24,000 nt of DNA from NCBI RefSeq assembly GCF_000025505.1, contig NC_013849.1, positions 685,799 through 709,798 on the forward strand, written 5' to 3'. The stretch is from Ferroglobus placidus DSM 10642 (GTDB taxonomy: Archaea > Halobacteriota > Archaeoglobi > Archaeoglobales > Archaeoglobaceae). Below the pieces are notes generated by a model, which saw only the letters and a program-made list of their open reading frames with translations, was not told the DNA's origin and did no database searches. Below, piece after piece: positions 7,647 to 21,625 of the stretch; the first letter of the stretch is position 1; each line of letters starts with the position of its first letter. Both the position numbers and the translations under genes were made by a program.

Positions 7647-10600
7647 ATGATTCCCGTCAAATACGCGAATCTTTGCTCCGTATGCCACAAAGACGTAACA
7701 TGGGAGGAGCTTGAAAAGAGTTACTGCAGATTCAAAAAGCTTCCTCAATGCTCCTCGTTCCTCGACAAGATCTATAAGGAGTTCGAAGAGTTTTTCAAAA
7801 AAATTATTGGGGAGCCGAGGTCCATACAGAAATTCTGGGCGAAAAGAGTACTTAGCTTTGAGAGTTTCGCAGCTGTAGCTCCGACTGGAATAGGAAAAAC
7901 ATCCTTCGGCAGCGCCATGGCTTTATTCCTCGCGTTAAAGAAGAGAAAGAGTTACATAATCCTGCCTACAACTCTTTTGGTCGCGCAGGTCGTCGAAAAT
8001 TTGAAAAAATACTGCGAAAAAGCCGGAATTGACTGCGGTTTGAACGAGGAGAAAGAAGTTACTATAGCTTACTATCACGGGAAGCTGAAAGAGAAGGATA
8101 AGTTCTTCGAAATTCTTGAAAAGAACTCCTTCGACATTCTCGTCACCACAACTCAATTCCTCCCGAGGTATTTCGAAAAGCTAAACGGAAAAATTTTCAA
8201 CTTCATCTTCGTGGATGACGTTGATGCGGTTTTAAAAGCTTCGAGAAACGTTGACAGAATTCTGAAACTTCTCGGCTTCAGATACAAAAATGGGAAATGG
8301 GAAGGAAAGCCGAAGGGAGTTTTAATGGTATCCACGGCAACGGCTAAGAAGGGGCAAAAGGTGAAGCTGTTCAGAGAACTCCTCAACTTCGACGTCGGAA
8401 CATCTACGCATGCCGTGAGAAACATAGATGACGTTTACGTCGAAAGAGCTGACGTTGAGGCGGTAAAAGAGATACTGAGAAAGATGGGAAGTGGAGGATT
8501 AATATACGCGAGAAGTAGCGAGGAGGCTGAAGAGCTCTACAACTCGCTAAAGGATGAGTTCAAAGTTGGATTGGTCACAGCCCAAAGAAAGAAGGACTTC
8601 GTTCTCTTCGAGAGAGGCGAAATAGACTATTTAATAGGGACTGCTTATTACTACGGAACTCTCGTCAGAGGTCTCGATCTCCCCGAAAGGATTAGGTTTG
8701 CGGTGTTCTTCAAAGCTCCGGTGTTCAGAGTTAGAATAGAGGACATAGACACGATCTCTCCGGGAATGGTGAGGGTAATTGCTCTAATATTCAAGGAGGA
8801 CGAGAGGGTAAAGAAGTTTATTCCCTACCTTCCCAAAATAACGGAGGGCACGAAGGAATTTGAAGAGCTTAAAAGCATTTTAAAGAAAGTTATAGCCGAG
8901 AGGAAGAAGGAAGTTAAGGACTTCGTTCTCAGAGAGGGAGAGGTAATATTTCCGGACGTGAGAACTTACATCCAAGGCTCCGGAAGGACTTCGAGGCTTT
9001 TTGCCGGGGGAATAACGAAAGGAGCTAGTTTCCTCCTTGAAGATGACGAGGACGTTCTCAAAGCTTTCGTAGAGAGAGCGAGATACTTCGACATAGAATT
9101 CAAGAAAATAGACGAAGTCGACTTCGAAAGCCTGATAAGAGAGATAAACGAGAGCAGAGAAAAGTTCAGGAGGAGAGCAGAGTTCAAAGACGTTATAAAG
9201 CCGACTCTGTTCATAGTCGAAAGTCCGACCAAAGCGAGGCAAATTTCGAGATTTTTCGGACAGCCGAGCGTTAAAGTTATTGGAGATGAAAACGACGTTC
9301 ACGTCGTAGCCTACGAAGTTCCAACGCCGGAGAGAATCCTTATAGTCACCGCAAGCCTCGGACACGTTACAGATTTAATAACGAACAGAGCATTCCACGG
9401 TGTTGAAGTTAACGGAATTTTCGTCCCGATTTACGCTTCGATAAAGAGGTGCAGAGACTGCGGCTATCAGTTTACGGAGGAGAGGGAAAACTGCCCGAAG
9501 TGCGAAAGCTCCAACATCGACGACTCGAAGAAGAGAATAGAAGCTTTGAGAAGGCTTGCGAAAGAGACGGGAGAGGTAATAATAGGCACGGATCCGGATT
9601 CAGAAGGAGAGAAAATCGCCTGGGACATAAAGAACCTGCTCTCCGGCTGTGCTACGATAAAAAGAGCAGAATTTCACGAAGTTACGAGAAGAGCCGTAAC
9701 CGAAGCTTTAGCAAATCTTAGAGACGTCGACGAAAATCTCGTGAAAGCTCAGATAGTCAGGAGAGTCGAGGACAGGTGGATAGGGTTCATTCTGAGTCAA
9801 AAGCTGTGGGAGGTTTTCAAGAACAGAAACTTATCAGCGGGAAGAGCTCAAACTCCCGTTTTAGGATGGATAATCCAGAGAGCCGAGGAGAACAAGAAAA
9901 AGAAGACGGTAGCTTTTGTAAAAGAACTCGGACTAAGCTTGGAGGGAATAGCGAAGAAAGAGCTTGAACTTGAAATAGAGCTGATAGAGAAAAAAGAAGA
10001 AGAAAGAACACCGCTTCCCCCTTACACGACCGATTCCATGCTCAGAGACGCTAATGCAATACTGAAAATGAGCGCAAAGGATGCGATGCAAATAGCTCAG
10101 GAATTGTTTGAGCACGGTCTCATAACTTACCACAGAACAGATTCAACGAGAGTGAGCGAAGTTGGGCTGAGAATAGCCAAGGAGTACCTCGGAGAATATT
10201 TTACTCCGAGAGAGTGGTTTGCCGAAGGTGCGCACGAGTGTATTAGACCGACGAGAGCCATTGATAGAGACACCCTCCAGAGACTGATAAGCGAGGGAAT
10301 TATCGTGGTGGAAAACTTTACGTGGAGGCACTTCGCCCTGTACGATTTAATCTTCAGAAGGTTCATGGCAAGCCAGTGCAAACCTTACAAGGTTGTGGTT
10401 GCCAAATACAGAATTAAAGCCGACGGTAAGGAGTTCGAGGAGGAGAGAATCATCAAAGCTGAGGGAAGGGCTTACGAACTTTACAAGTCAGTTTGGGTTA
10501 GAAACGAGCTGCCAACCGGAAAGATAAAGGTTGAAGCTGAGATAAGGAGAGTTCCAGCTGCTCCTCTGTACACTCAATCAGACGTCGTTGCTTTGATGAA

Positions 10601-10865
10601 AGAAAGAAGAATAGGACGTCCCTCAACTTATGCGACGATAGTGGACAAGCTCTTTCAGAGGAACTACATAATAGAGAAGGGAGGAAAGCTCGTTCCCACA
10701 AAGCTCGGTTACTCAGTCTATGAGTACCTGATTAACAACTACAGATCCTTCGTTTCGGAAGAGAGAACGAGGTTGCTCGAGGAGATGATGGACAAAGTCG
10801 AGAGAGGAGAAGCCGACTACTTCGAAACTTTAAAAGAAATGTATAACGAGGTAAAGCAAATTTAG
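7647..10865 (+). CDS. rgy: Reverse gyrase (helicase-like domain fused to type IA topoisomerase)
   Basis: The N-terminal Zn finger is CSVCHK. The helicase motifs are APTGIGKT (I), VDDVD (II) and QGSGRTSR (VI). The topoisomerase half has Toprim (LFIVESPTKAR, GTDPDSEGE), an inserted Zn ribbon CRDCGYQFTEERENCPKC, and the catalytic Tyr context LITYHRTDSTRVS. Total length is 1072 aa. Confidence 0.95.
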   Translation: MIPVKYANLCSVCHKDVTWEELEKSYCRFKKLPQCSSFLDKIYKEFEEFFKKIIGEPRSIQKFWAKRVLSFESFAAVAPTGIGKTSFGSAMALFLALKKRKSYIILPTTLLVAQVVENLKKYCEKAGIDCGLNEEKEVTIAYYHGKLKEKDKFFEILEKNSFDILVTTTQFLPRYFEKLNGKIFNFIFVDDVDAVLKASRNVDRILKLLGFRYKNGKWEGKPKGVLMVSTATAKKGQKVKLFRELLNFDVGTSTHAVRNIDDVYVERADVEAVKEILRKMGSGGLIYARSSEEAEELYNSLKDEFKVGLVTAQRKKDFVLFERGEIDYLIGTAYYYGTLVRGLDLPERIRFAVFFKAPVFRVRIEDIDTISPGMVRVIALIFKEDERVKKFIPYLPKITEGTKEFEELKSILKKVIAERKKEVKDFVLREGEVIFPDVRTYIQGSGRTSRLFAGGITKGASFLLEDDEDVLKAFVERARYFDIEFKKIDEVDFESLIREINESREKFRRRAEFKDVIKPTLFIVESPTKARQISRFFGQPSVKVIGDENDVHVVAYEVPTPERILIVTASLGHVTDLITNRAFHGVEVNGIFVPIYASIKRCRDCGYQFTEERENCPKCESSNIDDSKKRIEALRRLAKETGEVIIGTDPDSEGEKIAWDIKNLLSGCATIKRAEFHEVTRRAVTEALANLRDVDENLVKAQIVRRVEDRWIGFILSQKLWEVFKNRNLSAGRAQTPVLGWIIQRAEENKKKKTVAFVKELGLSLEGIAKKELELEIELIEKKEEERTPLPPYTTDSMLRDANAILKMSAKDAMQIAQELFEHGLITYHRTDSTRVSEVGLRIAKEYLGEYFTPREWFAEGAHECIRPTRAIDRDTLQRLISEGIIVVENFTWRHFALYDLIFRRFMASQCKPYKVVVAKYRIKADGKEFEEERIIKAEGRAYELYKSVWVRNELPTGKIKVEAEIRRVPAAPLYTQSDVVALMKERRIGRPSTYATIVDKLFQRNYIIEKGGKLVPTKLGYSVYEYLINNYRSFVSEERTRLLEEMMDKVERGEADYFETLKEMYNEVKQI

Positions 10866-12977: not shown

Positions 12978-13400
12978 ATGAAAAGAAGTTTGGTGTTTAG
13001 CATATTGCTCGGGCTGGTGGCTCTGACAGCCTACGCATCAGCCCACGGATTTGGCATGATGGGGTACGGTATGGGTATGGGAGGTATGTACGGAGAGGAT
13101 ATGATGAACTACTATAACACAGACGAAGCACAGACGGAAGTGAGCGGGAAAGTTGCGGCTGTGTACCCAATGGCAATAGTACTTGAAGATGGCAAGTACA
13201 TCAGAGTTCCCTGGTGGGTTGCCGCAAATCTAGGCTTAAAGCCGGGAGATGTAGTGAAGGTCGAAGGAGTAAGCTACGGAAACGTGATAGTCCCAACGTA
13301 CATAGAAGCGAACGGTAAAACGTTCCAAAGTCCAGTTTACTACCAGAATCCGGGATACGGTTACTACTCCGGCTACCACTGCCCCATGATGGGGTGGTGA
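12978..13400 (+). CDS. Secreted Met/Gly/Tyr-rich protein (putative soft-metal-binding)
   Basis: GAGGTGAT SD lies 6 nt upstream of the ATG. A Sec-type signal peptide MKRSLVFSILLGLVALTAYASA is followed by HGFGMMGYGMGMGGMYGEDMM. A beta-rich central part and a C-terminal YYSGYHCPMMGW follow. No family was recognised by eye. Confidence 0.6.
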   Translation: MKRSLVFSILLGLVALTAYASAHGFGMMGYGMGMGGMYGEDMMNYYNTDEAQTEVSGKVAAVYPMAIVLEDGKYIRVPWWVAANLGLKPGDVVKVEGVSYGNVIVPTYIEANGKTFQSPVYYQNPGYGYYSGYHCPMMGW

Positions 13401-13433
13401 TACGATCTTCCCCAATTTTTTGGAGGTTGTGAC

Positions 13434-13682
13434 ATGATGGGATACGGTATGATGGGAGGCATGATGGGGAACAACTTCGGAGGATGGTACTTCGGCAGCT
13501 TCGTCTGGCAGATACTCTGGCTCGCGATAATAGTGGCTGTGATCTACATTCTAATGAACTCACTGAGCTCTGGAAAGAAGAGCGAAGATATGTCCCTTCA
13601 AATCTTGAAAGAGAGGCTCGCGAGAGGAGAGATCAGCCAGGAAGAATACATCAAGTTGAAAGACGCTCTATCGAGAAGTTAA
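13434..13682 (+). CDS. SHOCT-domain membrane protein with a Met/Gly-rich extracytoplasmic N-terminus
   Basis: GGAGGT SD lies 7 nt upstream. The layout is MMGYGMMGGMMGNNFGG, then one TM helix (WQILWLAIIVAVIYILM), then a C-terminal ILKERLARGEISQEEYIKLKDAL that matches the SHOCT short C-terminal domain pattern. Confidence 0.75.
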   Translation: MMGYGMMGGMMGNNFGGWYFGSFVWQILWLAIIVAVIYILMNSLSSGKKSEDMSLQILKERLARGEISQEEYIKLKDALSRS

Positions 13683-13695
13683 AGCTGTCGCAACC

Positions 13696-13721
13696 TTTTT
13701 ATACATTTATTGTAAAATAAG
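13696..13721 (+). promoter_or_regulatory. Copy 1 of the conserved ~26-nt promoter/operator-like element (TTTTTATACA-TTTATT-GTAAAATAAG)
   Basis: It ends 3 nt before the GTG of the thioredoxin-like gene. It shares 21/26 nt with copies 2 and 3 (hand count), including the exact 10-mer GTAAAATAAG. Confidence 0.5.
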
Positions 13722-13724
13722 TTC

Positions 13725-14204
13725 GTGAAAGAGAAGAGACCTCTACCAATCTTTGCGATGGCTCTCGTACTCTTCGGGGTAGCTGCGATCTTCTTTGGTG
13801 TCAACGAATACGAGGAGTATCCGATAAAATTCTACAGCCTCGAAGAGGGGTTTAAAGTTGCGAAAATGGAAAACAAGCTCGTTTTGGTTTACATCCACTC
13901 CGATACCTGCTACGTCTGCAGAGCATTCCTTGAGGATCTATCGAAGTACGAAGATTTGCAAAAAACCTTTGAAAAGTTCGTTGTTGTCAAAGTGGACTTT
14001 CTAACTGAGAGGGCTTTAGCAGTGAAGTTCGGCGCTACTGGCACTCCCGAATTCCACGTCTTCTACCCCAACGGCACGCCGATGAAAATAAATGGGGTGA
14101 GAGCAGTTTATATCGGATACGCCGGCTCTCCGGACGATGAAAAAGCGAGAAAGTCCTTAATATCTTTTCTTGAGACCGCTTTAGAAAGCTACGACAGAAG
14201 ATGA
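13725..14204 (+). CDS. Membrane-anchored thioredoxin-fold thiol:disulfide oxidoreductase
   Basis: An N-terminal TM anchor (LPIFAMALVLFGVAAIFFGV) is followed by a thioredoxin-like motif VLVYIHSDTCYVCRAF (CxxC) and a cis-Pro region GATGTPEFHVFYPNG. The start is a GTG with a TATA-like TTTTTATA 22-29 nt upstream and no SD, so the mRNA may be leaderless. An alternative ATG lies at 13758. Confidence 0.7.
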   Translation: MKEKRPLPIFAMALVLFGVAAIFFGVNEYEEYPIKFYSLEEGFKVAKMENKLVLVYIHSDTCYVCRAFLEDLSKYEDLQKTFEKFVVVKVDFLTERALAVKFGATGTPEFHVFYPNGTPMKINGVRAVYIGYAGSPDDEKARKSLISFLETALESYDRR

Positions 14205-14212
14205 TCGAAACA

Positions 14213-14238
14213 TTATTATACACCTAACGTAAAATAAG
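14213..14238 (+). promoter_or_regulatory. Copy 2 of the conserved element (TTATTATACA-CCTAAC-GTAAAATAAG)
   Basis: It ends 4 nt before the ATG of the 21-aa ORF, upstream of the rhodanese gene. The ACA-N6-GTAAAATAAG spacing is the same as in copy 1. Confidence 0.5.
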
Positions 14239-14242
14239 GAGT

Positions 14243-14308
14243 ATGAAAATCGAAAAAGTGAAGAGAGAAAAAAGAGGAGTTTGCAAGTGCCACAACTCTT
14301 GCAGCTAA
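14243..14308 (+). CDS. Candidate 21-aa Cys-rich small ORF (MKIEKVKREKRGVCKCHNSCS)
   Basis: It falls below the ORF-track size cutoff and was found by reading the 135-nt gap between the thioredoxin-like and rhodanese genes. The ATG is 4 nt after a copy of the conserved GTAAAATAAG element and about 25 nt after the TATA-like ATTATTATA, the same geometry as neighbouring genes. The basic N-half is followed by C-x-C-x3-C. There is no homology support. Confidence 0.3.
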   Translation: MKIEKVKREKRGVCKCHNSCS

Positions 14309-14339
14309 AATCAAATTTTTATTTTTTGGAGGTGGTTGC

Positions 14340-14735
14340 TTGTCCGGAAAGTTAATAACAGCTTTTGCTATCGGCATCGTTGCAGCGTTTCTGCTCTACA
14401 ACAGCTTCGTTCTCTTTCCAAAGGAAAAAGCCTTCAAATCTGTATCTCCTGAAGAATTTTACAAGCTAATGCAGAACGAAGAAGCTTTTGTAATAGACGT
14501 TCACGTTCCGGAGCAGAAACATTTAAACGGAACCGATGCTTGGATACCCTACGACAGGATTGAAGAGTTCAAAGACCTCTTACCCAAAGACAAGAACACT
14601 CCCATCCTCGTTTACTGCAGATCCGGACAGATGAGTAAAATTGCCGCTTCAAAACTCGCTCAGATTGGATACAAAAACATCTACGAACTTGATGGAGGTA
14701 TTTTAGCTTGGCAAAGAGCCAATCTACCTTACTGA
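14340..14735 (+). CDS. Membrane-anchored single-domain rhodanese (sulfurtransferase)
   Basis: A TTG start is preceded by a strong SD GGAGGTGG (14328-14335). An N-terminal TM helix (LITAFAIGIVAAFLLYNSFVLF) is followed by a rhodanese fold with the active-site loop YCRSGQMS and a C-terminal LDGGILAW. Confidence 0.8.
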   Translation: MSGKLITAFAIGIVAAFLLYNSFVLFPKEKAFKSVSPEEFYKLMQNEEAFVIDVHVPEQKHLNGTDAWIPYDRIEEFKDLLPKDKNTPILVYCRSGQMSKIAASKLAQIGYKNIYELDGGILAWQRANLPY

Positions 14736-14736
14736 G

Positions 14737-15273
14737 CTAAACAAATCCCCACGGAGTTGAAGAGTACTTCCACACCGCTATTAAAACTGAGAAAATCAAT
14801 ACCACAATTTTCAATTTTTCGTAGTCCACGAACATAACTTTGGCAAGAAAACTCGAATCTTCGAAGAGGGCATTTTTCTGTATAGTCGAGAGCATCCATA
14901 CCGTCCCAACCACACTTGATAAAACGCCAATCAGAAGGAAGAACTCCGTGTACAACGTGAGAAAATAGCTTATTCCCACCCCAAGTAGAGGAACTGCATC
15001 AGTGACATGGTGGAGACAGCAAGCGACCATGCTTCCTGCTGAAATCCCTCCGGTGGCTATGCTTTTACAACTTTCACGATAGGATTTTATGTGGGTGTAG
15101 AGTGCAATCTGCAAACCAAAGCCAGCGCTGATCGGGAATACGTACATCCAGTAATTTTTTAGATTCCAAATAACTCCTTCATAACCAGCTGCGGCGTAAT
15201 TCACGAGAATATAGAAGGTAAGGAGAGAAATAAAAGCTATAAAACCATTTCTCACTTCTTTCATATCTCCCAC
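14737..15273 (-). CDS. Polytopic membrane protein with an intramembrane vicinal-cysteine/His motif (GSMVACCLHHV)
   Basis: 178 aa with about five hydrophobic helices. The third helix carries ISAGSMVACCLHHVTDAVPLLG. The start overlaps the upstream gene by 13 nt. The family was not recognised by eye. Confidence 0.6.
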   Translation of the reverse strand: MGDMKEVRNGFIAFISLLTFYILVNYAAAGYEGVIWNLKNYWMYVFPISAGFGLQIALYTHIKSYRESCKSIATGGISAGSMVACCLHHVTDAVPLLGVGISYFLTLYTEFFLLIGVLSSVVGTVWMLSTIQKNALFEDSSFLAKVMFVDYEKLKIVVLIFSVLIAVWKYSSTPWGFV

Positions 15274-15692
15274 TCCAAAACCCTCTCACTCTCCAGCTTC
15301 ACAACAAGTTTGAATTTTCCAGCTCTTTCTATTTCTTTCAGCGCCTCTTCGGGAAACTCAAGAATTCCGATTCTGTGATGTCCCCAAGATTTTTCGTCTT
15401 CTTTCCAAGAAACCGGTGAAAACTTTTTTCCGCCTACCTCAAGAGTCGTTCCATTTACTATGTCGTAGATGTATAGGTCTCCGGAGTGCGTGTCGAGTCT
15501 GAAGTAAAAGGTCGGCTTCGTCAATTCTGGATACTTCGGGTTCAGGTACATGGCGGTAACCTGCACATTACCGTAACTGACCTTGACGAGATCCTCTTCT
15601 TTCAATTCCTTAGGTTTGCCGTAGAAGTTATAGAGAATCACAAACACTCCGGCAAAAATGAGAATTGCAGCAATCAACAATTTCCTGTCCAT
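15261..15692 (-). CDS. Membrane-anchored extracytoplasmic protein with His motifs (DTHSGD, GHHR), function unknown
   Basis: An N-terminal TM anchor (LLIAAILIFAGVFVILY) is followed by a beta-rich domain with FYFRLDTHSGDLY and SWGHHRIGILEF. The ATG (15690-15692) abuts the palindromic element. An ATATATA box lies about 27 nt upstream on the coding strand. Confidence 0.55.
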   Translation of the reverse strand: MDRKLLIAAILIFAGVFVILYNFYGKPKELKEEDLVKVSYGNVQVTAMYLNPKYPELTKPTFYFRLDTHSGDLYIYDIVNGTTLEVGGKKFSPVSWKEDEKSWGHHRIGILEFPEEALKEIERAGKFKLVVKLESERVLEWEI

Positions 15693-15716
15693 GTTTTACA
15701 TTTGATGTAAAATAAG
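15691..15716 (+). promoter_or_regulatory. Copy 3 of the conserved element, the most symmetric copy (GTTTTACA-TTTGA-TGTAAAAT)
   Basis: It lies in the 42-nt gap between the copG-like gene and the His-motif gene. Its left edge overlaps the ATG (15690-15692) of the minus-strand gene. A 7-bp perfect inverted repeat TTTTACA/TGTAAAA has a 5-nt spacer. An ATATATA box (15718-15724) flanks it. A further GTTTTACA occurs at 15732-15739. Confidence 0.5.
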
Positions 15717-15734
15717 GTATATATCGTTTTTGTT

Positions 15735-16178
15735 TTACACTTCGTCGAAGATGCCAGTGCGACTTCCCGAGGTGTAGTATATTTTAAAGGGCTTGCTTTT
15801 AACTCCCGGCATTCCAGGAGAGCCCGTCGGCATTCCGGGAAGGGAAATTCCTTCTATAGCTGGTTTTTCCTTTAAAAGTTTGTCTATAGCCTCTCTTGGC
15901 ACGTGTCCGATAACGTAGTAGCCCCCAATGTAAGATACGTGGCAGCTCCAGAGTTTTCTTGGGACTCCGTGTTTCTCGTAAATTTTCGTTAAGCTTTTAA
16001 CGTTCACGATTTCAACTTCGTAACCTTCTCCTTCAAGGTACTCCGCATACTTCTCACAACACCCGCAAGCTTCGGGTTTGTAGATCACAACCTGCGATGG
16101 AGCGTTGCCGAAGTTTAAGTAAAGACCGAAAGCTAAAATTACTCCCAGCCCCACCACAAGAAGACTCAAAATTCTCAT
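15735..16178 (-). CDS. copG: CopG/DUF411-family metal-binding protein
   Basis: An N-terminal TM/signal segment is followed by CGCCEKYAEYL, GVPRKLWSCHVSYIGGYYVIGHVPREAIDKLL and SLPGMPTGSPGMPG. This matches the DUF411 signature CxCC...SCH...GHVP...PGMPxGSPGM essentially motif for motif. Confidence 0.85.
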   Translation of the reverse strand: MRILSLLVVGLGVILAFGLYLNFGNAPSQVVIYKPEACGCCEKYAEYLEGEGYEVEIVNVKSLTKIYEKHGVPRKLWSCHVSYIGGYYVIGHVPREAIDKLLKEKPAIEGISLPGMPTGSPGMPGVKSKPFKIYYTSGSRTGIFDEV

Positions 16179-16205
16179 GGAGAGAGGCGGTCGAAAAAGT
16201 ATAAG

Positions 16206-16231
16206 TATTTTTTCATTAGGTGTAAAATATG
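16206..16231 (+). promoter_or_regulatory. Copy 4 of the conserved element (TATTTTTTCA-TTAGGT-GTAAAATATG)
   Basis: It lies in the 50-nt divergent region between copG and the methyltransferase. Its last three bases are the methyltransferase ATG. It matches copy 1 at 19/26 nt with identical spacing. Confidence 0.45.
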
Positions 16232-16840
16232 GTGAAAAAGGGATTGGATAAGAAAAGGTACGATAGAGTTGCTAAATTTTACGATATCTTTGAGTCTCCC
16301 ATGGAACTCTTGGCTTTTTCCTCTTGGAGAAGGGAACTTACGAAAAATGTCGAAGGTAACCTCGTCCTTGAAGTGGGAATCGGAACCGGAAAAAATATAC
16401 CATACTACAAAAACTGGGAGGTAGTTGGAGTTGACATAAGCAGAAGGATGCTGGAAAGAGCCGTAAAGAGGGTTAAAGAGAACAAAAAAGTTGTTCATCT
16501 GATCCAAGCTGACGCTGAAAGTTTACCTTTCAAGGATGGTGTTTTCGACGCAATCATATCCACCTACGTTTTTTGTTCCGTGGAGAATCCGATAAACGGG
16601 CTCAGAGAACTCCACAGAGTTCTGAAGAAAGGTGGCAAAGCGTATTTTCTCGAACACATGAGGAGCGAAAGTGAATTCGTCGGAAAAATTCTCGACATCC
16701 TAAACCCCCTCTTCAGAAAGCTCGGTCCGGAGATAAACAGGAGAACTGCAGAGAATATAAAGAAAGCTGGATTCAAAATAGTTGAGGAGAGGCACTTAAT
16801 GACGTCTATTTTCAGAATGATAGTGGCTGAAAAAAGTTAG
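16229..16840 (+). CDS. Class I SAM-dependent methyltransferase (UbiE/Methyltransf_11-like)
   Basis: The N-terminus has YDRVAKFYD. Motif I is VLEVGIGTGKN. The post-I acidic residue is GVDIS. Also present are FDAIISTYVFCSV and LKKGGKAYFLEH. Confidence 0.8.
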   Translation: MVKKGLDKKRYDRVAKFYDIFESPMELLAFSSWRRELTKNVEGNLVLEVGIGTGKNIPYYKNWEVVGVDISRRMLERAVKRVKENKKVVHLIQADAESLPFKDGVFDAIISTYVFCSVENPINGLRELHRVLKKGGKAYFLEHMRSESEFVGKILDILNPLFRKLGPEINRRTAENIKKAGFKIVEERHLMTSIFRMIVAEKS

Positions 16841-17967
16841 TTGAGGAGGAGACGTCTTATCAGCTCCTCCACCTTTCCTTCAATAACCTTACAAAGCTTT
16901 AAAGCATCTTCGTAGCTATTCGGAGTGGAAAGTTTCCAAACCTCGTCAACTCTCCGAACATCGACGCTTTCATCAAGAGAAATTACGTAGTCCGCATCTT
17001 CAAGCATCTCTTCTGTTAGCTTTTTCGGCTTTGTCAGCTTGACTCCACGCTTTTTTGCGAACTCTACCGCAACCTCGCTAAGACTCTTCGAAGGAGAAGT
17101 CCCGTAGCTGATAGCGTGCATGTTGTCCGGAGATATTTTATTGAAAACGTACTCAGCTATCTTCGTTCTCAAATCGTTCTTAACGGAAACGAAAAACACC
17201 CTTTTCGTTGACGTTAACTTTCTGTATTTGCCTATGGACTCTGGAACTTCAGGCTTTAACTTGAATTTTCCTATCTCAACACTGCCTACGTCTATAAACC
17301 TGAGCTCAAGTTTAACCGCTTCTTCATCAAACTCTACTACGTTGTAACTGTTGTCCGGCATCAGAACTTTGTAAGAGCTGAGAGAGCCAGCATGAATTAC
17401 GTGGGTTCTCAGGAGTTTTGTGGAGTAGGGAACATGCCTGTGACCGGCTAAAACCACTCCTCCGCTACAGTGAAATGCCATAGCTTCAACCATTTCTGCT
17501 GCGTCGATCAGAACGTTCATATTTCTCCCGGTGTGGGGAATCGGAACGAGGTGGTGATGCATGACGACTATGTTTATGCAGTTTTTCCTGACATTTGAAA
17601 GTATCCACTCTCTCTGCTCGTCCCCCACGTATCCCTCGTCGGAGTCTGGAAGGGTGCTGTCCACTCCTATAAAGACCGCATTATCAACCTTCACCCTCTT
17701 TCTCGTCCTTCCAAAGTACAGCCTGAAGTACTTCAATCCGTCGTTTCTCGCATCGTGATTGCCGGGAACGGCGAGAATCTCAGACTTTATACCAGAAAGC
17801 GTTTCATAAGCATCTCTAAACTCGTGATGCACTCCTCACAGTCCGATATCTCCGGTTAAAACGACCAAGTCCGGCTCGATTTCGTTTATCTGTTTTATAG
17901 CCTTCTCAACCTTGTCCTTCAGCAGCTCAAAGCCGAAATGAACATCCGATATGTGGACGATTTTCAT
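16837..17967 (-). pseudogene. Metallophosphoesterase fused to a degenerate LMW-PTP/ArsC-like domain, interrupted by an in-frame TGA (17836-17838)
   Basis: The minus strand reads ATG(17965-17967) MKIVHISDVHFGFELLKDKVEKAIKQINEIEPDLVVLTGDIGL-TGA-GVHHEFRDAYE.... Motif I (DVH) and motif II (GD) lie upstream of the stop. GNHD, MHHH and GHRH lie downstream in the same frame. C-terminal residues ~210-331 resemble an LMW-PTP fold with VFFVSVKNDLRT in place of the CX5R(S/T) loop. Confidence 0.65.
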
Positions 17968-19570: not shown

Positions 19571-19749
19571 GACTATTTAAACTTTTCATTAATAAAAATT
19601 TTTATATTAGGAAATTATAATAACTCAATTTATTTCAAATATTTTAACAGATGTAAAATTTAATCATAAAAAATTAAATTCCTTTTCCAGAACAAATGTC
19701 AACTCGTTACGTGATAAAATTTTTAGGGTTACGAAAATTTACTACCACC

Positions 19750-20334
19750 ATGAGCTGCGTTGCGGAGCTCGCGAAAAGGAGAAAGAGCGTGAGGAAATTC
19801 AAACCCGACAATTTCGACATGGAAGTAATTATCGAGTGCATAGACGTAGCCAAGGAAGCTCCGTCTGGAAGTAACGCCCAGCCGTGGCATTTCGTCATCG
19901 TAAAGGACGAGGAGTTGAAGAGGAAAGTGAGAGAGGTTTGTGAAAGGGGGGAAAAGAAATTCTACTCTCACGTGAGAGGAGAGCTGGCTGAGTGGTTGAA
20001 AAGCAAAGGGTTGAACTGGGAGAAGCCCTTCCTCACGGAAGCTCCTTACATCGTTGGAGTGTTTGCTAAGAAGAAAGCACCGTATTCGAGGGAGTCGGTA
20101 TGGATAGCTGTGGCTTATTTCCTCCTCGCTCTCGAAGAGAGAGGACTCGCAAGCTTAACATACACACCACCGAACAGAGAAGAAGTTGCGGAAGTTTTGA
20201 GGTGTCCTCCAGAGTACAGACTGGAAGTTCTAATTCCCGTAGGATTTTCAGCCGATAGCAAGGAAAAGGAGCCAAGGAAGAGTGTCGAGGAGATTACAAG
20301 CGTGGATTACTTCGATGTCCCGCTAAAAATGTGA
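19750..20334 (+). CDS. Nitroreductase-family flavoprotein
   Basis: RRKSVRKFKPD and APSGSNAQPWHFVIV are typical nitroreductase FMN-binding motifs. The ATG at 19750 (MSCVAELAKRRKSVRKF) is preferred over the track start at 19696, which adds 18 non-conserved-looking residues. Confidence 0.8.
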   Translation: MSCVAELAKRRKSVRKFKPDNFDMEVIIECIDVAKEAPSGSNAQPWHFVIVKDEELKRKVREVCERGEKKFYSHVRGELAEWLKSKGLNWEKPFLTEAPYIVGVFAKKKAPYSRESVWIAVAYFLLALEERGLASLTYTPPNREEVAEVLRCPPEYRLEVLIPVGFSADSKEKEPRKSVEEITSVDYFDVPLKM

Positions 20335-21187: not shown

Positions 21188-21625
21188 ATGAAGTGTATTT
21201 GTGGAGTGGATGGTTGGAAAGTCAAGAAAATAACCGTAGGAAATCACCTCAATCCGGAGTACTGGCATTTGCTCAGCGATGACTTTTACTTCTGCCCAAA
21301 TTCGGAGTGCGACGTAGTGTACTTCGATGGTAGAGCAATCTTCACAACTAAAGAAGTTAAAACAAAGGTCTTTTTCAAAGAAAAAGGTTCTCCAAAGCCT
21401 TTATGCTACTGCAAGCAGGTTACAGAAGAGGACGTCATTGAGGCGATAAAGAGAGGAGCTAAGAGCGTTGAAGAAGTGGAAGAAATAACCGGCATAGGAA
21501 ACGGGGGACACTGCGTAATTACAAATCCGTCAGGCAGATGCTGCAAGCTGTATTACGAAGGATTTATCGAGGACTTGCTTGGGAAAAAAGATAGAGACGA
21601 ATGTCGGGAGTGCTGCGAATCCTGA
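21188..21625 (+). CDS. Stand-alone CopZ-N-terminal-domain-like Cys-rich protein (zinc-ribbon plus BFD-like [2Fe-2S] motif)
   Basis: CICG...FYFCPNSECDVVYF is zinc-ribbon-like. PLCYCKQVTEEDVIEAIKRGAKSVEEVEEITGIGNGGHCVITNPSGRCC has BFD-like [2Fe-2S] spacing (CxC...C...CC). There is an extra C-terminal DECRECCES. The arrangement resembles my memory of the N-terminal domain of Archaeoglobus fulgidus CopZ. No HMA domain is present. Confidence 0.6.
   Translation: MKCICGVDGWKVKKITVGNHLNPEYWHLLSDDFYFCPNSECDVVYFDGRAIFTTKEVKTKVFFKEKGSPKPLCYCKQVTEEDVIEAIKRGAKSVEEVEEITGIGNGGHCVITNPSGRCCKLYYEGFIEDLLGKKDRDECRECCES

Follow-up and report, generated by a model that had tools for sequence, protein, structure and literature searches.

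Proteins of the DUF411/CopG family are copper-cluster-binding proteins with a CxCC motif. Under anaerobic conditions CopG-like proteins help to confer copper resistance, and in copper clusters of the CopC-CopD and YcnJ (with YcnI) kind an outer beta-sandwich adjoins, or is fused to, a small membrane permease (PMC7558416). The MerT/MerC/MerF carriers with MerP combine vicinal cysteines in a transmembrane helix with a separate metal-binding partner, and the ScsABCD and CcdA-ResA/CcmG systems bring together anchored thioredoxin-fold proteins and a Cys-bearing membrane protein in the context of copper stress or cytochrome c maturation (Ccm). Here we compare these systems with a gene island of the archaeon Ferroglobus placidus DSM 10642 that lies in a stretch of 24,000 nucleotides (the window; NC_013849.1, positions 685,799 to 709,798). 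The island comprises Ferp_0789 to Ferp_0796, all annotated in databases as hypothetical or by a domain name only, and one unannotated 21-amino-acid (aa) open reading frame (ORF); we refer to its first eight ORFs as g1 to g8, g4 being the unannotated one, and to Ferp_0796 as the methyltransferase. Our analysis suggests, and we hold with moderate confidence, that this cluster is an accessory, extracytoplasm-facing module of Cu(I)/Ag(I) homeostasis organized around a metal relay formed by g6 and g7.

The argument begins with g6 (Ferp_0793; 14737-15264, minus strand), a protein with five transmembrane segments and the motif SMVACCLHHVTD. The form on record is the 175-aa one that starts at ATG; a GTG-start version had no exact database match. 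A word-indexed search returned 19 relatives of g6, and an exhaustive profile search of 1.84 billion representatives (cut-off E<=0.001) returned a family of 951 clusters at 50% identity. All of 149 diverse members keep C82-C83, while M79, H85, H86, P92, S75 and a GFG-Q motif are each kept in at least 90%. The AlphaFold model of g6, with a predicted local distance difference test score (pLDDT) of 89.5 and a predicted template-modeling score (pTM) of 0.83, has five long helices with the CC-HH motif in the middle of helix 3, the vicinal Cys pair sitting inside the transmembrane helix (72-94 of the model). We propose, from this conservation and the model, that CC-HH is the membrane metal site of the module. 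No fold in the PDB matched g6 at E<1 with Foldseek, no Pfam or NCBIfam family matched g1, g6 or g7 even at E<=1, and a Pfam scan of the 149 g6 relatives gave no Mer-transporter model at E<=0.001 and no DsbD/CcdA match. To judge from these searches, g6 and g7 constitute a previously undescribed family.

The stop codon of g7 (Ferp_0794; 15261-15692, minus strand) overlaps the start of g6 (ATGA). g7 is an anchored protein of 143 aa with DTHSGD and GHHR motifs, and its invariant residues are H69, H105, H106, D77 and W96. A homologous domain is fused to the C-terminus of g6 in P0016, P0019 and P0038-P0046, the first two being among the 19 relatives from the word search, and a g7 profile brought in further fusions of this kind; about half of the best 150 g6-family matches are about 300 aa long, which is the length of the fusion. 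The g7 profile also retrieved stand-alone secreted versions, including one from a Burkholderiales bacterium. For gene neighborhoods we took one genome per species, giving 31 g6 loci from Archaeoglobales, Woese-, Pace- and Nanoarchaeota, Chloroflexi/Dehalococcoidia, Saccharibacteria and Bathyarchaeia, and considered neighbors within 5 kb of g6. At 14 of these loci (Archaeoglobales, Woesearchaeota, Chloroflexi, Saccharibacteria and Bathyarchaeia) g7 is adjacent to or fused with g6. On the strength of overlap, fusions and adjacency, g6 and g7 are, at the level of gene organization, functionally coupled, and we propose that g7 is the extracytoplasmic partner of g6. The AlphaFold model of the P0019 fusion (pLDDT 89.9) consists of five helices with CC-HH in helix 3, followed by an immunoglobulin-like beta-sandwich. 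g7 has no significant PDB relative by sequence or by Foldseek; the nearest Foldseek neighbors of the sandwich are the DUF4426 protein PA0388 and Helicobacter pylori CrdA, a copper-resistance determinant that binds Ag/Cu, with TM-scores of 0.55-0.58 on the target. These matches are, however, below significance (E about 4e-3), share 8-13% identity over a generic immunoglobulin-like sandwich and differ in their conserved residues.

A path for the metal can be read from domains fused to the other end of g6. Among the 149 relatives, a Pfam scan found N-terminal HMA domains in two proteins, YHS/TRASH in two and HMBD in one, in the architectures HMA-HMA-g6-g7 (P0115), HMA-g6 (P0226), YHS/TRASH-g6-g7 (P0177) and YHS-HMBD-g6 (P0174). 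Charge bias places the domains of g3, g7 and g8 outside and the N-terminus of g6 inside; both this bias and the hydrophobic segments given here come from a Kyte-Doolittle scan, which is crude and not a dedicated signal-peptide predictor. Taken together, charge bias and fusions suggest an order that runs from a cytosolic metal-binding domain through the CC/HH site in the membrane to the His domain outside.

How does this arrangement differ from the described systems? It follows the logic of CopC-CopD and YcnJ, but g6 has five helices where PcoD has eight, its candidate ligands are CC/HH where those of the known pairs are His/Met, the g6-g7 fusions carry the outer domain at the C-terminus, and neither CopC (PF04234), CopD (PF05425), YcnI nor any other Pfam family was found in g6 or g7 at E<=1. 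Relative to MerT/MerC/MerF, the outer partner of g6 is a His-bearing sandwich rather than an HMA domain, and HMA, where present, is N-terminal and predicted to be cytoplasmic; there are no mer genes in the loci that we examined and no Mer profile matched g6. Compared with ScsABCD and CcdA-ResA/CcmG, the cysteines of g6 are vicinal, the family has metal-domain fusions, and no DsbD/CcdA model or solved fold matched at E<1. A close relative of solved CopG is g8 (Ferp_0795; 15735-16178, minus strand), an anchored DUF411/CopG protein of 147 aa in which all the Cu-cluster motifs are present (CGCC, SCH, GHVP and PGMPTGSPGM). It scores 81.2 bits against a DUF411 (PF04214) cut-off of 27 (E 4e-23) and aligns with Pseudomonas aeruginosa CopG (6WIS; E 5e-18) over CGCC, SCH, GHVP and PGMPxGSPGM, both proteins being exported or anchored. 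Unlike P. aeruginosa CopG, g8 is archaeal, hyperthermophilic and membrane-anchored, and it stands beside g7-g6, a rhodanese and a methyltransferase rather than copA, cus or multicopper oxidase genes.

The neighborhoods of g6 suggest which metal may be involved. Rhodanese is the commonest neighbor (21 of 31 loci), followed by DUF411/CopG and a membrane-anchored DUF7343/MarR-like regulator (15 each), Cupredoxin_1 (11), small Met-rich membrane proteins like g2 (10; most with a Met/Gly-rich stretch, some with SHOCT), a P1B ATPase or HMA protein (10), a methyltransferase related to Ferp_0796 (8) and ArsR (7). DsbA-like, DUF5676 and YgaP-like transmembrane proteins also recur. Complete ATPases among the neighbors carry CPC, YNx4P and MxxSS, the signature of Cu(I)/Ag(I) pumps in Argüello's classification; the ATPase at L010 has CPH instead. 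On one strand of a further groundwater contig (L037) lie PadR, HMA and CopA genes, then after an interval a MarR-like gene, and further on a g6-g7 fusion, a cupredoxin gene and an ArsR gene. The HMA, YHS and HMBD fusions, together with the cupredoxin, DUF411 and Cu-type ATPase neighbors, make copper the best-supported substrate. A preliminary description of the island had proposed a soft-metal envelope function for mostly uncharacterized parts, and this proposal gains from the lack of a known family for g6 and g7, from the metal-domain fusions and from the copper-island neighbors. Its further claim that the system is self-contained does not survive the comparison: in other genomes P1B pumps and regulators are physically linked to the module, and the simplest reading is that it is accessory to the pumps.

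Within the Archaeoglobales the island is conserved in part. A Ferroglobus metagenome-assembled genome (L006) keeps methyltransferase, g8, g7, g6, g5 and g4 up to the contig end, and a second metagenome-assembled genome at about 64% identity (L007) has this set plus g2 and g1, without g3. Two Archaeoglobus-type assemblies (L008 and L009) have methyltransferase, anchored regulator, g7 and g6; an Archaeoglobus assembly (L010) has methyltransferase, g7, g6, CcmH, CcmF and CcmH, then a SHOCT protein and the CPH ATPase; another (L011) has g7 and g6 only. The picture of eight equal parts therefore gives way to one in which only g6 and g7 are constant. As judged from these loci, proteins of the g2, g5 and g8 types are recurrent accessories, and g1 to g4 (the g2 type aside) are lineage-specific: g1 and g4 do not extend beyond close relatives, an orthologue of g1 with HMGYGMM and HCPMMGW being kept in L007 only, and g3, which is not present in L007-L011, is restricted to F. 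placidus.

Several promoters of the island share a putative operator. A 17-bp palindrome, TTWWCA-N5-TGWWAA, is placed downstream of a TATA-like box and ahead of the start codon in both g7 and the methyltransferase. Upstream of g7 (g8-g7 intergenic region, 15689-15739) the TATA-like box is flanked by three copies of TGTAAAAY and the palindrome reads TTTACA-TCAAA-TGTAAA, ending 2 nt before the g7 ATG; in the divergent g8/methyltransferase promoter (16193-16228) it reads TTTTCA-TTAGG-TGTAAA and ends 2 nt before the methyltransferase ATG. Candidate operators also precede g3 (13700-13721, plus strand; TATACA-TTTAT-TGTAAAATAAG, with the left half in the TATA-like box) and g4 (14217-14238, plus strand; TATACA-CCTAA-CGTAAAATAAG, in a promoter block conserved in L006 and L007); these two share TATACA-N5-[T/C]GTAAAATAAG, the extended half-site being TGTAAAATAAG. 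The region upstream of g1 has GAGGTGAT and not the palindrome. The copy upstream of g7 is found at the same position in L006-L009 and the methyltransferase/g8 copy is conserved in L006 and L007 (L006, 867; L007, 7012 and 7551; L008, 7533; L009, 7527; L010, 8578 and 8603, before ccmH). The halves of the palindrome are over-represented: GTAAAATA occurs 5 times in the window against 0.85 expected, with four of the five in island promoters, and TGTAAAAY 8 times against 1.65 expected. The GTAAAATAAG 10-mer with one mismatch allowed is not significant; the shorter cores are significant and positionally conserved. That the promoters of g7-g6, methyltransferase/g8 and probably g3 and g4-g5 share this element suggests a single repressor-controlled regulon, and the position of the palindrome suggests a repressor that would block polymerase recruitment at leaderless promoters. 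A gene for an anchored winged helix-turn-helix protein stands divergent from g7 across the palindrome in L008 and L009 and is thus a candidate regulator; tblastn found no homologue of it in the window. A further TGTAAAAT copy at 19652-19659, outside the island and 44 nt upstream of a nitroreductase gene (19696-20334), may mark another member of the regulon or may be due to chance. A sigma-70 promoter/terminator scan was not used because the organism is archaeal.

There is a partial likeness between this element and the operator of CopR from the hyperthermophilic euryarchaeon Pyrococcus furiosus, TTNNCAWWWTGNNAA, which has the same half-sites (TTNNCA and TGNNAA) and lies upstream of the B recognition element, with a 3-nt spacer, in the copper regulon of that organism (PMC7830388). 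The spacer of the island palindrome is, by contrast, 5 nt long, the palindrome lies between TATA and ATG, and the window contains no CopR gene. The likeness of half-sites is a lead, not membership.

A plausible scenario is that g6 and g7 pass a soft metal ion across or into the membrane between the CC/HH site and the outer His domain. The His triad of g7 would stand on the outer face, and in some relatives the polypeptide is extended by HMA, YHS/TRASH or HMBD domains that are predicted to be cytoplasmic. Transfer outward is weakly favored, as co-transcription with CopA elsewhere weakly favors detoxification or export. DUF411/CopG, the rhodanese, the thioredoxin, g1/g2 and g4 would then keep the exported Cu(I) bound, redox-controlled or trapped by sulfide, and the methyltransferase would also belong to the module. 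A broader idea is that g6-g7 represents a new and widespread class of ATP-independent soft-metal relay, which in anaerobes works with exported rhodanese, DUF411 and methyltransferase in a thiol- or sulfide-based copper detoxification and which in Archaeoglobales has a conserved operator-repressor pair. We put this forward tentatively, as a possibility that we would stop short of calling probable; hosts of this candidate class were found here in Archaeoglobales, DPANN, Chloroflexi, Bathyarchaeia and Saccharibacteria.

A number of observations count against a copper module of this kind. Copper (or silver, by chemistry) is inferred only from the fused domains and the neighbors. A small ATP-independent carrier has no obvious source of energy for export. 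Rhodanese is a commoner neighbor of g6 than copper pumps are (21 versus 10 of 31 loci), and this predominance, along with the adjacency of CcmFH genes at four loci, is the main fact that the copper model leaves unexplained. The pLDDT of the g6 model is lowest (63-78) exactly around the CC-HH helix, and the membrane orientation of g5 is ambiguous from charge bias. At 17 DPANN loci g7 is lacking and g6 is shorter, and most of the comparison loci are metagenome-assembled contigs. With one mismatch allowed, the window has 3 copies of the full palindrome where 1.6 would be expected, which is not significant alone, so that the weight rests on its positional conservation. As the preliminary description had reported for the island, neither a P1B ATPase, an HMA protein, a multicopper oxidase, MerA nor a regulator turned up among the ORFs scanned in the 24-kb window; nor did tblastn of the window with the anchored MarR-like and ArsR neighbors as queries reveal a regulator. 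A CopA/CopB pump and an HMA chaperone, none of which is encoded in the window, are present at 10 of the 31 related loci and at L037. Finally, our literature searches yielded nothing on Ferp_0789-0795 or bearing on g6/g7.

The predominance of rhodanese is what would be expected if g6 instead used its cysteines to conduct sulfane sulfur, thiosulfate or polysulfide through the membrane, with rhodanese and thioredoxin serving it and the link to copper being secondary (for example, sulfide for metal precipitation). In DPANN archaea the genes before g6 encode a CxxC/CC membrane protein and a rhodanese that carries a fused CPLC membrane domain, YgaP-like transmembrane and DsbA-like proteins occur in the same islands, and these islands are rich in Cys-motif membrane proteins. 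We nevertheless consider this explanation unlikely for the following reasons: (i) the domains fused to g6 (HMA, YHS/TRASH and HMBD) are binders of metal, not of sulfur; (ii) cupredoxin, DUF411 and Cu-type ATPases are co-located with g6; (iii) at E<=1 g6 has no match to a sulfur-transporter family or to any other in Pfam and (iv) the His triad of g7 fits a metal ion and not sulfur.

The Ccm genes invite another explanation, which is that g6 acts in a thiol-disulfide relay like CcdA, DsbD or ScsB, reducing g3, DUF411 and CcmH for cytochrome c maturation and for the repair of copper-damaged thiols. A CcmH-CcmF-CcmH set lies directly downstream of g7-g6 in L010 (8599-11569), where the ccmH promoter has the same palindrome, and CcmF/CcmH genes lie near the pair in L024, L026 and L029; these four of the 31 loci belong to Archaeoglobus, Bathyarchaeia and Chloroflexi, and there are no Ccm genes in the island of the window. 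An anchored CxxC thioredoxin in the window, the DsbA-like proteins of DPANN islands and c-type cytochromes encoded nearby in F. placidus fit as well. We regard this role as somewhat less likely still, as neither g6 nor any of its 149 relatives matches a DsbD, DsbD_2 or CcdA model, no PDB fold matches at E<1 and the cysteines of g6 are vicinal in one helix rather than one in each of two helices. Moreover, the metal-domain fusions and the His-rich outer domain would be left unexplained, and most hosts are DPANN, whose islands have copper genes and are without Ccm genes.

Mercury was among the metals considered in the preliminary description. A further reading is therefore uptake of mercury or another thiophilic metal in the manner of MerT/MerC/MerF, with g7 in the place of MerP and g6 as the CC carrier, and the vicinal cysteines in a transmembrane helix, the HMA fusions and the exported partner domain are all in its favor. 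The comparison weakens it to the point where we consider it improbable: no MerA-type or other reductase was found among the large neighbors at the 31 loci, neither MerA nor MerR appeared among the neighbors scanned there or in three further gene tables (L037, L038 and L040), the window has no MerA, MerR or MerP, the Mer models that failed to match the 149 relatives also failed to match g6 itself at E<=1, and the neighbors are copper-specific (DUF411, cupredoxin and ATPases with CPC/YN/MxxSS). That small membrane and exported genes with no joint function came together here by chance is very improbable, for although g1, g3 and g4 have narrow distributions, G+C is not distinctive and L008, L009 and L011 keep only g7-g6 together (with or without the methyltransferase), the pairing of g6 and g7 by fusion and stop/start overlap, the recurrence across phyla of rhodanese, DUF411, Met-rich membrane protein and methyltransferase, and the shared, positionally conserved promoter palindrome are more than chance would give.

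The remaining parts of the island fit around the proposed copper relay as accessories. All eight ORFs were present at the coordinates and with the motifs that had been quoted for them. The hydropathy scan places a hydrophobic segment at the N-terminus of g1, g3, g5, g7 and g8 and another inside g2, and it marks several in g6; profile searches likewise bore out SHOCT for g2, a thioredoxin-like fold for g3, rhodanese for g5 and DUF411 for g8. g1 (Ferp_0789; 12978-13400, plus strand) is an exported Met-rich protein of 140 aa that has a signal-like N-terminus, MMGYGMGMGGMYG and HGFGMMGYGMGMGGMYG, with a core rich in beta structure and HCPMMGW at the C-terminus; its matches to PDB sequences (nitrile hydratase and the Cdc48 N-domain) were set aside as weak, the best having an E of about 0.007. 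g2 (Ferp_0790; 13434-13682, plus strand) has 82 aa, with MMGYGMMGGMMG in a Met/Gly-rich N-terminal tail, one transmembrane segment followed by GKK, and a SHOCT domain (PF09851) at residues 55-79 (32.4 bits against a cut-off of 27; E 6.9e-8) that the flanking charges put on the cytoplasmic side. g3 (Ferp_0791; 13725-14204, plus strand), of 159 aa and with the motif CYVC, is predicted from charge bias to be an anchored thioredoxin-fold protein with its N-terminus in and its C-terminus out; it scores 34.5 against a cut-off of 27 for Thioredoxin_2 and 33.5 against 23.5 for Thioredoxin, and the E-values for Thioredoxin_2, Thioredoxin_7 and Thioredoxin are about 3e-8.

The 21-aa ORF g4 (14243-14308, plus strand; MKIEKVKREKRGVCKCHNSCS) contains C-x-C-x3-C. 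In L006 and L007 the rhodanese gene is likewise immediately preceded by an ORF of this length, in which GVCKCH[N/S]SCS-stop is kept, and six third-position changes relative to the L007 copy are synonymous; g4 is thus probably a real small Cys/His peptide. In the segment 14243-14339, g4 is followed by TTTTTATTTTTT, then GGAGGTGG, then the TTG start of the rhodanese gene, and the block is conserved in L006 and L007; the oligo-T tract between g4 and g5 could be an archaeal terminator or attenuator. g5 (Ferp_0792; 14340-14735, plus strand), whose gene is preceded by T5AT6 and GGAGGTGG, is a membrane-anchored single-domain rhodanese of 131 aa with the loop CRSGQMS (PF00581; 56.1 bits against 22.2, E 5.5e-15). 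The NCBIfam equivalogs GlpE and PspE were below cut-off, so no specific subfamily is assigned.

Ferp_0796 (16229-16840, plus strand) is a class I S-adenosylmethionine-dependent methyltransferase (Methyltransf_11, E 1e-25) that had been taken as an outside flank. It does adjoin the island, but the right-hand boundary should take in 16229-16840, since its recurrence beside g6 indicates that it belongs to the module. Related methyltransferase genes adjoin the module in L006-L010 and L021; in L016 and L028 such a gene is flanked by those for an HMA protein and CopA. A methyltransferase is in fact linked twice independently, once as the soluble Methyltransf_11 protein inside these arsR-HMA-methyltransferase-copA operons and once in P0214 (490 aa), where a membrane methyltransferase of the ICMT/PEMT type is fused to g6-g7. 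An ArsM-like reading of Ferp_0796 was set aside, as the protein has a single Cys and the ArsM models are far below cut-off.

In DPANN genomes the short g6 is surrounded, within 5 kb, by large and dense metal islands (L013, L015-L017, L019, L025, L028, L030, L033, L034 and L036). These contain runs of as many as four DUF411-type or Cys-rich genes, some of which end in MVGGC, together with the CxxC/CC membrane protein (141 aa), small CC/His peptides (MGCCGSHKHG…), a PGCIACG membrane protein, a lycopene-cyclase-domain protein, DUF5676, cupredoxin and DsbA-like proteins, ArsR and CopA; most of the families are without annotation.

Elsewhere in the window, a 145-aa protein (21188-21625, plus strand), 5 kb from the island and adjoining a c-type cytochrome gene, has zf_CopZ and BFD-like [2Fe-2S] domains and is a stand-alone homologue of the Zn/[2Fe-2S] N-terminal half of Archaeoglobus CopZ, without the HMA domain. 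A gene for a fusion of metallophosphoesterase and LMWPc (ArsC fold) at 16837-17967 (minus strand) is broken by an in-frame TGA (…LTGDIGL*GVHHEF…). In three independent read assemblies it is called as genes of 43 and 331 aa, and a pseudogene, read-through or recoding could account for the break. Upstream of acs, at 7647-10865, is a reverse gyrase gene (DEAD, Toprim and Topoisom_bac), which fits a hyperthermophile and is not part of the island finding. The G+C content of the island itself is 0.42-0.47, which is unremarkable.

What is understood of copper handling in strict anaerobes and archaea comes, to our knowledge, almost entirely from CopA, CopZ and CopR. The cluster described here points to a second, envelope-side layer of copper handling made from proteins without family assignment, in which the domain fusions of g6 would spell out the path of the metal from the cytoplasm to the exterior. 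The hypothesis is directly testable, as F. placidus can be cultivated and specific predictions exist for the operator, the ligand residues and the partner domains. That the g6 family marks dense metal islands in genome-reduced DPANN archaea suggests strong selection in anoxic, sulfidic and metal-rich habitats, and the recurring rhodanese and methyltransferase hint at an undescribed copper-resistance chemistry, which may involve, for example, persulfide trapping or methylation.

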